From: a virus
Taxonomy: Duplodnaviria; Heunggongvirae; Uroviricota; Caudoviricetes
IMG/VR virus record: IMGVR_UViG_3300045988_147970
DNA: 38,666 nucleotides
Direction: 5' to 3' (one strand)
Shown: positions 22,410 to 26,438 of the stretch, one piece after another
Numbering within the stretch: the stretch's first letter is position 1
How the letters are laid out: each line of letters starts with the position of its first letter
The notes under the pieces: generated by a model
What the model saw: only the letters and a program-made list of their open reading frames with translations
Database searches by the model: none
Told to the model about the DNA's origin: nothing
Program-made: the position numbers and the translations under genes

Positions 22410-22709
22410 TTAGACATGGAACGCTACTCGCTTTCCTGTAGGAAGCTCAACATCCAGGCTTAATTTGCCTCCCATAGCTTCAACGTAACGCTTTAATGTC
22501 GCCAGCTTTAAATCATTTCCGCGCTGCTCCAGCTTTGTTACTGCTGGCTGGCTTATACCCATCGCCTCAGCAACCTGTTTTTGTGATAACTGGAGTTCTT
22601 CACGCATCATCTGCAAGCCGACCTCAAGAATCATCTCATCTGCCATTTCTTTAATTCGCGCCTGGCTTTCAGGTGAACGGCTGGCAATCACCTCATCTAA
22701 TGTTCTCAT
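22410..22709 (-). CDS. HTH XRE-family antitoxin (HigA-like)
   Basis: 99 aa; HTH QKQVAEAMGISQPAVTKLEQ; start overlaps the toxin stop by 1 nt (ATGA). Confidence 0.65.
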   Translation of the reverse strand: MRTLDEVIASRSPESQARIKEMADEMILEVGLQMMREELQLSQKQVAEAMGISQPAVTKLEQRGNDLKLATLKRYVEAMGGKLSLDVELPTGKRVAFHV

Positions 22710-23056
22710 TACTTGCTCTCCAGTGTGTTCAGATGTGCTGCAAACTCATCCTCAGCTATACGCACCAGTTTTTTATAAAACCGCTTATCGTTACTTTTGT
22801 CTCCTGCACAAAGAACGATGGCCCGACGAATCGGATCGAACGCATAAAAGGCTCTTATCGGACGGCCAGAAAACTGAACGCGAAGCTCTTTCATATTTTT
22901 GTACCGAGAACCTTTTACGGTATCGGCATATGGCCTGGGTAACTCAGGTCCGTAAACCTGTAGATTTTTCAAATCAGCCAAAACCTTTTCCTGAAGAGCC
23001 TCTTCTTGCTCATTTAGCCAGTCGTCAAATCGCTGGCTAAAAAGTACCGTCCACAT
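22709..23056 (-). CDS. RelE/HigB-superfamily toxin, phage Gp49-like
   Basis: Start at MWTV with AGGA RBS; ADTVKGSRYKNMKELRV...AFYAFDPIRRAIVLCAGDK...KRFYKKLVRIAEDEF matches the Gp49-like toxin pattern. Confidence 0.65.
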   Translation of the reverse strand: MWTVLFSQRFDDWLNEQEEALQEKVLADLKNLQVYGPELPRPYADTVKGSRYKNMKELRVQFSGRPIRAFYAFDPIRRAIVLCAGDKSNDKRFYKKLVRIAEDEFAAHLNTLESK

Positions 23057-23300
23057 GCTCAATCCTATAACCTGTAGTTTATACCACTGACTATATAACC
23101 CGTAGGTTATAATTTCAAGAAAAACGGGGCTATTTAACATAATGGACGTTATCGGCACCACCGGATCACCGTTCATTGTCGGATCTAAAAAATCCGCTCA
23201 AAAGATCATGTTTTCCTGGGCGTTTTCCACCGTTTTTTATGTTGCTTATTTGTTAATGAAATCTCGTTTTCAGTTTCGCCTCATTTTCGACGCGAAAGCC

Positions 23301-23591
23301 CTATTTTTGTGACTTTACTCCTGGCATATGGACTTCCCAGCGACGAATCCCCATAGCTGCGCAAAAATCAGCCACATAATTCAATCCCGCCCATTCGCGG
23401 ATACCACCACGGGCTTTTTCAATGAAAACGGCAATCCCTTTTTTATTGAGAGCAAAAAGCCGCCAGCTTTTTGTCACTTCGTCCTGGGTAGCCACAACAC
23501 AAGTGAAAGCTCCCATGCGATACAGGTCCAAGAACTCTTTGCGTGTTTTGCGTACAAGTTCCATAACAAACCTCATATTTGCATGTTTCAA
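23301..23591 (-). CDS. hypothetical protein
   Basis: 96-aa ORF whose start overlaps the stop of the upstream HTH gene. Confidence 0.3.
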   Translation of the reverse strand: MKHANMRFVMELVRKTRKEFLDLYRMGAFTCVVATQDEVTKSWRLFALNKKGIAVFIEKARGGIREWAGLNYVADFCAAMGIRRWEVHMPGVKSQK

Positions 23592-23887
23592 ACATCTGTT
23601 TTGTTATCAATGAAGATTAACCCTAACCCAGCGAAGTAACACAGCAGCGCCCAGGCTGCATACGGAATGCTGGATCTGGATGTGGACTCCTTTAACATCT
23701 GCCAGTTGCGAACATTGCGACTATCTTTTAAGCCTAGTTTTTTGGCTAACTGCGAGCCGCTCATTCCGGTCAGGCCAATGACTGCCCGAACTTCTCCACA
23801 TGTAGGAGATTCCCATTCATCCGCTTTTTTTAAACAAGCCGGATTCAACATTTTTAAAACAGTATCTTTATCCATAACCATCTCCAT
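23588..23887 (-). CDS. XRE-like HTH protein with C-terminal hydrophobic segment
   Basis: HTH-like GMSGSQLAKKLGLKDSRNVRNWQ; C-terminal IPYAAWALLCYFAGLGLIFI; palindrome AGGAAA-N3-TTTCCT just upstream of the start. Confidence 0.4.
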   Translation of the reverse strand: MEMVMDKDTVLKMLNPACLKKADEWESPTCGEVRAVIGLTGMSGSQLAKKLGLKDSRNVRNWQMLKESTSRSSIPYAAWALLCYFAGLGLIFIDNKTDV

Positions 23888-23921: not shown

Positions 23922-24368
23922 ATGTGGCAATAGAAATTTACTACATTGCGTATAAGACAAGTTTTCTATGTCTAATAGGAAATGATGTTTCTTACATTTT
24001 ATCGCGTTCTGATGGCTACTGTGTGCGTATTTATCGACGTTTATTGATAAGGCTCGCCCCTTCCTCCTGCAAAGCCCGGCCGTAGGCCTTATTTCGGCCT
24101 TATATAAATTGATTTTGTATAGTTCGAAACGTGCCGTTTCGAAAAGGATGATCAGGCTGCTCCATGCCTCCGGCAAGTGCCGGAGGAGGTATATTTGAGC
24201 GTAGCGACTCGAACCGGCGCGAGCTTTAGCTCGCTGCAAGGGCGAACATATTCACAGGCAAAGCCTGTGTAAGTTAAATAAAGAAAGTCTTAATAAAAGA
24301 AAGTGATTTTGCATTTATTTGTTTAGTGCATCTATTATAAAAAACCATTTGCATATACATATCAGAAC

Positions 24369-24377
24369 TGTGGATAA
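24369..24377. promoter_or_regulatory. DnaA box (TGTGGATAA) within candidate oriR
   Basis: Perfect 9-mer consensus ~145 bp downstream of the repA stop in an AT-rich stretch. Confidence 0.5.
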
Positions 24378-24518: not shown

Positions 24519-25367
24519 TTAATGTTGGAGTGATTTCCAGGTCTTTCTTAACCTGTTATAACGCTGCTCAACGAGGGATCGTAAATATGCAAGGTCAGCA
24601 CCAGGATACATGCCATCAGCAAATTCCTGACTAACCTCTCTGGTGATTTGATGACGAAGTTCGGCCTCTCCCTTTTCCCGAACAAGACGCGCAGCTCTCT
24701 CCGCTGCTTTCTGTTTTGCCTTTATCTCTCTGGCCGTCTTCCTCTGACGCCATACATTCTCCATCTGCTCCTGAATAACAATACGCTTATAATCAGCCTC
24801 CGTTATCGCTTTTTTAAGCCGTTCGCTATTCTTCGCATTGAAGTAATTAAGTTTCTGGCTAACCGCACGTCTCCATGCTTGTTCAGTAATACCAACGGTT
24901 TCCAGCAGTTGATCACGAATCTCTATTTTCGCTGGCCAATACTGTTTATTCACCCGATCCCAGCGACGTTCATAATCAATAAAACCTAACGCTTTCAGTT
25001 GCGACAACGCCCTTGTACAGCGCGTTATAGACTTGTTCCCAGCTTCGGATACGGTAGACAGGCCGCAAAAATCAGCCAACGCCTCAGCACTAGCCAGAAC
25101 CCGCTTAGAAATGATGTTTACATGGTGCAAAATCGCAGCGATCACAGCATTAATCGCCCGACGACGATGCTCGTTTATCCGGCGCTTCCGCTCTGACGGT
25201 TGATTAACGTAGAACGCAACCTCACACGTAAGATCACGCCCATTAATGCGCTGTAAAGCATCAGATAACACCAGCGGCAGCTTGTGCGTATGGTGCTTTG
25301 GAGGCTGGAACTCCGGCGACAAATTACAAACGTAAGCTGAACGTAGAGACGGCATTGGTCTATCCAT
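24519..25367 (-). CDS. repA: replication initiator RepA, IncFII RepA1 family
   Basis: AINAVIAAILHHVNIISKRVLASAEALADFCGLSTVSEAGNKSITRCTRALSQLKALGFIDYE aligns with my recollection of R100 RepA1. Start set at MDRP; the track ORF extends 44 codons further upstream in frame. Confidence 0.8.
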   Translation of the reverse strand: MDRPMPSLRSAYVCNLSPEFQPPKHHTHKLPLVLSDALQRINGRDLTCEVAFYVNQPSERKRRINEHRRRAINAVIAAILHHVNIISKRVLASAEALADFCGLSTVSEAGNKSITRCTRALSQLKALGFIDYERRWDRVNKQYWPAKIEIRDQLLETVGITEQAWRRAVSQKLNYFNAKNSERLKKAITEADYKRIVIQEQMENVWRQRKTAREIKAKQKAAERAARLVREKGEAELRHQITREVSQEFADGMYPGADLAYLRSLVEQRYNRLRKTWKSLQH

Positions 25368-25382
25368 ATGTTCGCTCTTGCG

Positions 25383-25495
25383 TCCACGGAAAACCAACGT
25401 ATAATGGGAGTTGTCGAGGCGCCCATGGATTGTTGTTGTTGGTTTTCCGTGGATGTCGCAAGAAGCCCGCAGATTTATCTGCGGGCTTTTTGTTT
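25383..25495 (+). ncRNA. candidate CopA-like antisense RNA opposite the repA leader
   Basis: 16-bp perfect inverted repeat (25383..25398 with 25438..25453) followed by hairpin AGCCCGCAGA-TTTA-TCTGCGGGCT and a T-run on the plus strand; boundaries inferred. Confidence 0.4.
25464..25495 (+). terminator. rho-independent terminator on the plus strand, antisense to the repA leader
   Basis: Perfect 10-bp stem with 4-nt loop followed by TTTTTGTTT. Confidence 0.55.
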
Positions 25496-25862
25496 CCATA
25501 TCTGGTCACTTTCCAACCAGACACCCACAATCATAACCACGTTACGTGGTTTTAAGAGAACTCTACCACAACACTTTCGGTCATGCACGAAGTCTCTCAC
25601 TGATCGAACGATAATCCACCAGTAAAAGGATCTAAATTGGATCTCGTTTTGCGAGCATCATACTACTGGCCTAACTCCAGTCAATGATTCCCAGCCAGAA
25701 ACCTGCGGTAAACTCATCGTTCAGCAATATGCTGTCCGGCTTCAAAGATAAGGTGACATCATCCCTTAACAGCGCGGCCAGCTCCGTTAAAGGGTTGTTT
25801 TGACTTAATGCAAAACCGCTAATAAACATATTGGCGGTTTTGTTCCTTAAATCATCTTGCCT

Positions 25863-26438
25863 TTACACTAATTCTGGCCATTCGATATCAGGGGCATTTT
25901 CCGGCTGAACGCGATTCAGTAGCACACGGTATTTTTTCCAGTGTGTCAGGCTTAACTTTTCTTCCTCGGTAGCCATATCTAAATCGACAGCATCCTGCAG
26001 AGTGGCAATAATTTCACCTGCATATGCAATCAGCTCTTTCTTCTGAGAGTCAGCCGCTCTGACAAGCGCATCACGCTCTGCATTCTCATCATTCACCCAC
26101 GCATTGCCGTTCCATTTCTGATAATCCCCCTCCGGGGAAATGGCTGTCACGTCTGGAGGTAATACGCCAAGTTCAGAAATATAAATGGCTGCTCCCGTTT
26201 TCGTTTCATAGACGGTCTTTCCGCGATGGTCTTCCATCAGTTCCCATTTCATTTCATCTGCATTGAAAACGGCTGCATAACCCGCCGGAATATCAGGCGG
26301 TGCAATATCTGTACTGTTTGCAGGCAGGCCAGTATACGGTGGGATATATGCGTCACTTTCGCCAATAAATTCATTGGTTCCATCAAGTAAATTGAAAACG
26401 CGGATAGTTTGTGCTTCTGCACTCATTCTGAAAGCCAT
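25863..26438 (-). CDS. tail fiber assembly protein
   Basis: 191 aa immediately downstream of the tail fiber gene with overlapping stop/start; pattern typical of Tfa chaperones. Confidence 0.7.

Follow-up and report, generated by a model that had tools for sequence, protein, structure and literature searches.

Organization of the repA locus

The window analysed here is the whole 38,666-nucleotide (nt) stretch of the IMG/VR virus record IMGVR_UViG_3300045988_147970 (Caudoviricetes) and represents a myovirus-type phage-plasmid of 47–50 kb. Our subject is the leader region of its replication initiator gene repA, which lies on the minus strand at positions 24519–25355 and most likely encodes 278 amino acids (aa), with its start codon at 25355; initiation at a second in-frame ATG, at 25367, would lengthen the product to 282 aa. 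A repeat search of the window located two inverted repeats in this leader. The arms of the first (25383–25398 and 25438–25453) are 16 nt long, 100% complementary and separated by 39 nt. The second (25459–25474 and 25477–25492) is 94% complementary with a single G–T and is directly followed by TTTTTGTTT, which ends at 25495, just before the CAT at 25497–25499 that reads as ATG on the minus strand. An earlier sequence-only reading of this DNA had described a perfect 16-bp repeat with a 39-nt loop, then a hairpin and a T-run on the plus strand stopping just before the ATG at 25499. The first repeat was recovered at the same coordinates, and the hairpin and run are present, with the one G–T in the stem. 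The plus strand is, as that reading also held, antisense to the repA leader: the minus-strand open reading frame (ORF) matches Pfam IncFII_repA (PF02387, 1.3e-43), the match starting at residue 53 of the 326-aa ORF from 25499. Its count of 44 in-frame codons ahead of the likely RepA start is correct for this window.

Structure prediction, which had been proposed for both strands, gave −68 kcal/mol for the plus strand between 25378 and 25498 compared with −33.3 ± 3.5 in dinucleotide shuffles (z = −9.9, with 0 of 200 shuffles as good), and the fold of a 316-nt repA leader on the minus strand had a z of −6.7. Very probably, an antisense-RNA control region covers the repA leader, and the T-run near 25495 very probably marks the 3′ end of a plus-strand RNA. 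To this extent the proposal of a CopA/CopT-like control was borne out. Membership of the CopA family was not, as the covariance search with the Rfam CopA model (RF00042) found no match at E ≤ 10, whether in 3 kb of sequence or in the 601 nt surrounding the site. PK-repBA (RF01089) and PK-repZ (RF01087) likewise gave no match at E ≤ 10 in these two regions, and all matches obtained were sub-threshold look-alikes of the hairpin-plus-terminator kind (Thr_leader and CsrC among them). R100 CopA, searched under identical settings, scored 106.3 bits (gathering score 60), and in an equal-sized search the leader of a relative, L006, scored 49.3 bits with PK-repBA (gathering score 45). Since both controls were recovered, the search works.

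For comparison we used 16 distinct leader versions, which fall into an E. coli clade of numerous almost identical members (E), two Salmonella versions (S), two Klebsiella-type versions (K) and a lineage N, which was missed by pattern-based scans and reached only via RepA homologues. The scan of the viral collection was filtered by flanking motifs; in the genome collection, an exact search with only 15 nt (TGTCGAGGCGCCCAT) gave nothing but chance matches, the pattern being too short. Two distant homologues, L007 and L008, carry a diverged copy of the module that scores 36 bits to the covariance model. Pairs were counted in alignment A7, which holds the 16 variants fitted to the covariance model. 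The MAFFT alignment A3 misaligns the start region, and pairs of the helix formed there were therefore judged by constrained folding for each lineage and by shuffles. Across lineages with ~77% identical flanks, the block 25368–25495 is nearly invariant except for one short patch.

The predicted antisense RNA

The predicted promoter of the plus-strand RNA consists of a −35 hexamer TTGCGT (25378–25383), unchanged in all lineages, and, 16 nt further downstream, a perfect −10 TATAAT (25400–25405), which lies in the 39-nt loop of the first repeat and is unchanged in the 16 variants of the five lineages and in L007/L008. The two distant homologues retain TTGCAT-18-TATAAT and the first transcribed bases, GGAGTTGTCGAGG, while spacer and arms are wholly different. 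This retention of the hexamers is the best available evidence for the identity of the putative promoter. On the CopA/CopT-like reading, the 16-bp repeat would be the stem of the antisense RNA. This assignment was not supported: with the invariant TTGCGT-16-TATAAT as promoter, the left arm becomes the spacer and transcription would start near 25411, so that the RNA would contain only the right arm.

The predicted RNA is ~85 nt long (25411–25496, plus strand), its 5′ end being placed within ~3 nt and its 3′ end in the T-run. RNAalifold folded it into a 5′ tail, stem-loop 1 and a terminator. In alignment A7, 412 of 412 cells were paired (100%), with three pairs altered on both sides, and the covariation score of this fold was 0.088 compared with 0.047 in shuffles; none of 500 shuffles scored as high and all slid controls were lower. 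G–U pairs account for 20% of the paired cells, and as they leave only 79.6% of the pairs when the same fold is laid on the minus strand, an RNA from the plus strand is favoured. Stem-loop 1 (25418–25457), the putative recognition hairpin, is built from the stems GGCG/UGUC and CCAUGG/CCGUGG and has a loop of ~16–18 nt. Its column pair 22/46 occurs as G–C, A–U or G–U and its pair 21/47 as U–G, U–A or G–U; in lineage N the upper stem is swapped for AGAAUUU/GGAUUCU (7 bp including two G–U) and the hairpin is retained. The rho-independent terminator (25458–25495) has a 16-bp stem, a UUUA loop and a U-run. One A–U pair of its stem is G–C in 5 of the 16 variants, and three G–U pairs in the lower stem are invariant; on the minus-strand side this hairpin is followed by a tail of CUUCUUGCG only. 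General characteristics of a countertranscript were thus found at the site: a convergent promoter and a rho-independent terminator, both as sequence signals only, in all lineages and in L007/L008, and a conserved strand-specific stem-loop with a loop that varies between related replicons.

A CopA-like arrangement would look different. There, an RNA of ~115 nt would start just upstream of 25383, use the repeat as its main stem and block a tap-like ORF coupled to RepA. The very stable plus-strand fold of 25378–25498 would suit such an RNA, a weak promoter-like TAGAGA-17-TATGTT can be seen by eye upstream, and in L009 from K. aerogenes the one non-Watson–Crick position of the long stem is G–U on the plus strand and C–A on the mRNA. 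However, the upstream hexamers are not conserved in the S and K lineages, whereas TATAAT in the loop is invariant even in L007/L008, a wobble in S. Weltevreden favours the mRNA strand, and a perfect stem of 20 bp would hide half of the recognition sequence. Considering also the negative CopA search and the variation of the upstream ORF described below, we regard this arrangement as very improbable.

Two hairpins of the repA leader in proposed competition

Since the antisense RNA would be without the left arm and both arms are present only in the mRNA, the 16-bp repeat was assigned to a hairpin of the repA mRNA. In unconstrained folds of the minus-strand transcript, this proposed ON hairpin (25383–25453) joins a 5′ arm (25453–25438) to a 3′ arm (25398–25383), with a possible 6-bp extension between 25462–25457 and 25382–25377. 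The 5′ and 3′ arms read GGAAAACC and GGUUUUCC in lineage E, AGAAAUCC and GGAUUUCU in lineage K, GAAUCCAAC and GUUGGAUUC in lineage N and, with unrelated sequence, UUGUCAGCC..GCCACAC and GUGUGGC..GGCUGACAA in L007. The arms co-vary between lineages, and no variant has fewer than 9–10 bp.

Blocking in silico of the leader segment that would pair with the antisense RNA gave rise to a second hairpin in every lineage. In this proposed OFF hairpin (25353–25399, minus strand) the 3′ arm (25399–25385) pairs over 12–16 bp with the start region (25368–25353) and buries AUGGA as well as the AUG at 25355. Its energies range from −15.6 to −20.2 kcal/mol, with z-values of −2.9 to −5.0 compared with shuffled start regions. 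The partner sequence in the start region is ACCAAUG in E, CCAGCG in S, UUCAAC in K and GAAUUCAACG in N, where it almost repeats the 5′ arm, and complementarity is retained throughout; by sequence analysis, both mRNA hairpins show co-variation. In the E clade, the predicted unpaired probability of AUG 25355 fell from 0.95 to 0.02 on blocking the antisense target. For the upstream AUG of AUGGA it decreased from 0.35–0.82 to 0.01–0.18 in S and K and from 0.37 to 0.26 in E, with little change in N. In L007/L008 the equivalent arm pairs with the Shine–Dalgarno (SD) sequence of the downstream ORF, and the unpaired probability decreased from 0.29–0.50 to 0.01–0.15. Transcription attenuation was rejected, as the alternative hairpin is not followed by a U-run.

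In L007/L008 (region 1794–2504; 60% identical RepA; one of the two from Citrobacter freundii), the module precedes a 162-aa ORF with weak matches to winged-helix proteins, which overlaps the repA start by ATGA. This arrangement suggests that repA there may be translationally coupled to the upstream gene and that the module may control that gene.

The repA mRNA is predicted to originate from a minus-strand promoter, TTGACT-16-TATGAT (25657–25684), that agrees with the consensus at 10 of 12 positions. Its −35 hexamer is kept in all variants except L055, whose divergence begins slightly upstream of the −10. Across variants the −10 reads TATGAT or TATCAT, and the spacer diverges. Two GATC (Dam) sites, 25629–25632 and 25640–25643, lie 7 nt apart just downstream of the predicted transcription start and are retained in nearly all lineages (L183 is without one), with variable bases between them. 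The leader between 25500 and 25650 (minus strand) is structured as well. It contains a hairpin at 25500–25526, several pairs of which are altered on both sides, a stem AACCACG/CGUGGUU with a variable loop at 25535–25551, and others; for five sequences from four lineages, RNAalifold gave 43 pairs, seven of them altered on both sides.

A hypervariable patch in the loop

The patch excepted from the general conservation lies at 25429–25437 (ATTGTTGTT in the window) and forms the 5′ half of the loop of stem-loop 1; on the mRNA side it is unpaired in the loop of the ON hairpin, adjoining the 5′ arm. Of the 15 alignment columns between CCATGG and GTTGG, 11 are polymorphic in the E clade, compared with 17 of 388 elsewhere in the module (Fisher p = 2.5e-11). 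At least nine alleles of the patch occur, with lengths of 6, 8 or 9 nt, and one variant (L011) has a 5-nt insertion in the adjacent arm. Judged by this variation, the patch is probably the kissing or specificity (incompatibility) determinant. Its hypervariability fits the published role of a few antisense-loop nucleotides in incompatibility: a single loop nucleotide decides compatibility in IncK (PMC10724649), and few changes in one antisense stem-loop overcome incompatibility in Pseudomonas replicons (PMC5304414). Two copies in one genome were not found among 5426 complete E. coli genomes, so that natural co-residence provides no test of incompatibility.

The same sequence data bear on whether the repeat might be a DNA element, such as a cruciform or an operator bound by a dimeric protein (RepA or another), with the co-variation of the arms reflecting symmetric half-sites. 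The 16-bp symmetry is perfect, the repeat overlaps two promoter regions, and symmetric half-sites would also change in concert. Yet the spacing of the arms varies, with patch lengths of 6–9 nt and the insertion in L011, several variants have bulges, G–U positions or a stem of just 9–10 bp, and the neighbouring folds are strand-specific. Moreover, the 3′ arm can also pair with a further sequence, located at the start codon. A role as DNA element therefore appears extremely improbable to us, and we retain the assignment of the repeat to the mRNA hairpin.

The RepA start and the upstream codons

RefSeq/PGAP annotates RepA of the E. coli clade with 326 aa from 25499 (cluster P0001, 525 member sequences), and relatives' RepA with 277 aa is annotated as well. 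All lineages have an ATG at the position corresponding to 25355. The counterpart of ATG 25367 is found in frame 0, fused to repA, in E, in frame +2 with an ORF of 46 codons in S and in frame +1 with 13 codons in K. From this comparison, RepA most likely starts at 25355, or else at 25367, and the 326-aa model is probably too long.

According to the sequence-only reading, the 44 upstream codons could be a leader ORF of the tap type. The comparison indicates that they are not coding, since the S and K lineages have ATC or ACC in place of ATG 25499 and indels in the patch (+2 or −1 nt) shift this ORF out of the RepA frame in L011, L179 and L182, all of the E. coli clade; both findings also count against the CopA-like arrangement. 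As the ORFs from 25499 and 25367 vary in start, frame and length, there is no tap-like or repY-like ORF of conserved geometry, and no leader ORF that keeps its frame and ends beside the RepA start was found among the lineages compared. The invariant ATG at 25426 was rejected as the start of a leader peptide; the patch fills its SD position, and the ORFs have 83, 65 and 32 codons. As to the conserved (C/U)AUGGA around 25367, pairing within the RNA accounts for it better, and its GGA may also provide a weak SD sequence for AUG 25355. Upstream of it, a purine stretch (AAGAG, AAGGG or AAGUG) forms the loop of a small CGC/GCG hairpin.

A proposed antisense-controlled RNA switch

We propose, with moderate confidence, that this region controls the copy number of an IncFII/IncL-M-family theta replicon carried by a phage-plasmid, and does so as a module in which an antisense RNA flips an RNA switch in the repA leader. 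The mechanism would comprise four steps. A constitutive plus-strand promoter across and inside the repeat would give rise to the ~85-nt antisense RNA with its 5′ tail, stem-loop 1 and terminator. The repA mRNA would begin near 25650, and the repeat in its leader would form the long hairpin, with the RepA start region comparatively open (ON). The antisense loop would then kiss the single-stranded patch 25429–25437 in the loop of the mRNA hairpin and invade the 5′ arm. Finally, the released 3′ arm (25399–25385) would refold onto 25368–25353 (OFF) and thereby block RepA translation and thus replication.

Several points weigh against this proposal. The production, 5′ end and abundance of the ~85-nt plus-strand RNA are all predicted, and a simple promoter scan did not call the antisense promoter, the −35 of which shares only 3 of 6 bases (TTG) with TTGACA. 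In chimeras that combined arms and start regions of different lineages, cognate pairs had no advantage. Because these chimeras fold equally well, what backs the OFF helix is retained complementarity rather than co-variation strictly specific to each lineage. In the Salmonella and N lineages the accessibility predicted for the AUG itself hardly changes, and in the ON fold the base of the long hairpin pairs part of the purine-rich AAGAG stretch. RepA has only the weak SD sequence GGA, which leaves efficient translation in the ON state unaccounted for. The effective diversity of the sample is low, with about five lineages and one distant homologue, and the alignment used for counting is model-fitted and thereby biased towards the structure.

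Some of these points would also suit the antisense RNA as predicted acting mainly in another way, that is, by RNase III cleavage or otherwise by destabilization of an ~85-bp duplex, or by enhanced termination or pausing at the bidirectional hairpin, the second hairpin being incidental. The duplex would be long and perfect, and the terminator hairpin is also present in the repA leader, where it is trailed by CUUCUU. The chimeric pairs fold as well as cognate ones, and the predicted accessibility shifts are modest in some lineages. On the other hand, a complementarity of 12–16 bp between the start region and the 3′ arm is maintained in five lineages despite their differing sequences and is found again, with unrelated sequences, in L007/L008, and the lack of a U-run after the alternative hairpin makes classical attenuation unlikely. 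We consider it unlikely that such a route is the main one, even though duplex cleavage or effects of the bidirectional hairpin could contribute or dominate.

Comparison with known control systems

RepA belongs to the NCBIfam equivalog RepA_IncFII_LM (NF040977, 232 bits, cutoff 70). It fails the incFII RepA equivalog TIGR03474 (79 bits, cutoff 447), and it is 40% identical to R100 RepA1 over 97 aa only. With IncFII plasmids R1/R100 the replicon shares the initiator Pfam PF02387, the order of promoter, leader with convergent antisense gene, repA and downstream DnaA box with AT-rich origin, and, as proposed here, negative control of RepA translation by an antisense RNA of ~85–90 nt, as described for R1 (PMC12361487). 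In contrast to these plasmids, the window element has no similarity to the CopA covariance model, its recognition loop lies outside the terminator hairpin, and its antisense promoter is located within an mRNA hairpin. Neither a tap-like ORF nor a copB-like gene belongs to the conserved module. No gene for a CopB-type repressor co-transcribed from upstream was found, as the homology of the relatives ends at 25712 and invertase, tail-fibre-assembly or transferase genes lie beyond.

In the IncL/M (pMU604) and I-complex (ColIb-P9, IncB, IncK) systems, a structure III sequesters the initiator start region. A control of this type, in which the antisense RNA would block translation of a leader peptide and an activating pseudoknot would form between the target loop and a sequence near the RepA ribosome binding site, has several points in its favour. 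RepA is of the RepA_IncFII_LM family, L006, with its 63% identical RepA, has a genuine PK-repBA leader above the Rfam threshold, and in the K lineages ATG 25367 opens a 13-codon ORF over the RepA start. A start-region-sequestering structure is also proposed for the window, and a few loop nucleotides set incompatibility in those systems too (PMC10724649). On the other hand, PK-repBA and PK-repZ did not match in the window at E ≤ 10, and the ORF equivalent to 25367 differs so much (fused in E, 46 codons in S, 13 in K) that the stop position is not conserved. The purine stretch is the loop of a small hairpin and not a conserved SD sequence, and by eye there is neither a UUGGCG loop motif nor a CGCC partner near the start. 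Pairing of the GGGCGCC loop with the region ahead of the start, also inspected by eye, amounts to only 3–5 bp without co-variation. We therefore hold a pseudoknot mechanism of the IncL/M or I-complex type to be very doubtful. The window further differs in that its antisense RNA has a separate terminator hairpin and in that, under the switch proposed above, its start region would be governed by two partners competing for one arm rather than by ribosome transit and a pseudoknot.

A conceptual parallel exists in the REx-C modules of Pseudomonas PFP/RepJ replicons, which resemble the ColE2 type. These contain an antisense RNA, a terminator hairpin flanked by A/T, stem-loops and the rep expression signals, they are exchanged between rep genes, and some have no leader peptide, with rep starting right after the last stem-loop (PMC5304414). 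The window module is self-contained in the same way, being swapped among related RepA genes (compared with L006) and placed before a different ORF in L007/L008. Unlike REx-C, it belongs to an unrelated initiator family, to other hosts and to unrelated sequence, and the three-way competition for an arm that is proposed here is not described there. In the metagenomic L006, an unrelated leader at 2363–2489 has an antisense promoter with 11 of 12 consensus positions and a single long stem-loop terminator. As this leader is of the PK-repBA type, control modules have been swapped between closely related initiators.

By its sequence features, the control module of this replicon differs from those of its nearest initiator relatives, and the element appears to work like the antisense systems of IncFII, IncL/M and the I-complex, outside their RNA families. 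It is most likely a familiar kind of control in an undescribed arrangement, with an antisense RNA flipping a switch in the repA leader. More tentatively, we suggest as a possibility short of an even chance that this is an undescribed class of switch, in which the start region mimics the 5′ arm and competes for the shared 3′ arm, the antisense promoter lies inside that hairpin, the patch is under diversifying selection and the module is portable.

The phage-plasmid replicon and its neighbourhood

The repA region of the window is 99% identical to that of the Yersinia phages vB_YpM_39/41/44 and of ~60 E. coli plasmids, among them the 48,488-bp plasmid NZ_CP009073 of E. coli ATCC 25922. These phages and plasmids carry genes for capsid, tail, ParA and a toxin–antitoxin system. 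The element was present in 71 of the 5426 complete E. coli genomes and was plasmid-borne in each case. A literature search turned up no publication dealing with vB_YpM_39/41/44 or this replicon, and the papers it gave on relatives do not treat such an antisense RNA. HQ103, a Yersinia phage that persists in plasmid form, was not among the matches to the repA region, and pSLy3 was rejected as a member of the family, as it is an SSU5-type element.

In the IncFII-type layout, the origin is located downstream of repA. A perfect DnaA box, TTATCCACA (24377–24369), followed by an AT-rich stretch lies ~140 nt past the repA stop; this region (24270–24377, minus strand) is likely the origin in an IncFII-like layout. 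Upstream, the homology to relatives breaks at 25712, 28 nt ahead of the repA −35, and different genes lie beyond (a hin/pin-type invertase, a transferase or a tail-fibre assembly gene), which shows that the replicon abuts a variable, invertible tail-fibre region. A sub-threshold Rfam match to IS009 (52 bits, gathering score 117) at 25897–26095 (minus strand) falls within the tail-fibre assembly gene and probably reflects coding-sequence homology and not an RNA gene. Downstream of the replicon, an ORF of the Gp49/HigB toxin type was found at 22709–23887 (minus strand; Pfam PF05973, 2e-22). As relatives have the equivalent annotated as a RelE/ParE-family toxin with a helix-turn-helix partner, this region is probably an addiction module. 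In L003, a plasmid of S. salamae (CP053324), the RepA frame is broken: it runs for 183 aa after the conserved start, and tblastn matches it in two pieces. The cause is either a frameshift or a sequencing error in the record.

Implications for the phage-plasmid family

Antisense control of this initiator family is already textbook knowledge, and nothing in our results overturns it. They add, on an IncL/M-like initiator, a control module without leader peptide or pseudoknot, and such a module supports the idea that control and initiator modules are exchanged independently. For the databases, the RepA start is probably mis-set (326 instead of 278 aa) in a cluster of 525 sequences.

The family concerned is present in ~1.3% of complete E. 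coli genomes, including that of ATCC 25922, and occurs in Salmonella, Klebsiella and infectious Yersinia phages as well. For these phage-plasmids the module gives a testable account of how copy number is set, and the 9-nt patch probably decides which of them can coexist. On the more tentative reading of an undescribed class of switch, the diversifying patch of 6–9 nt would let closely related phage-plasmids escape each other's copy-number control and would act as an immunity-like specificity determinant towards superinfecting phage-plasmids.

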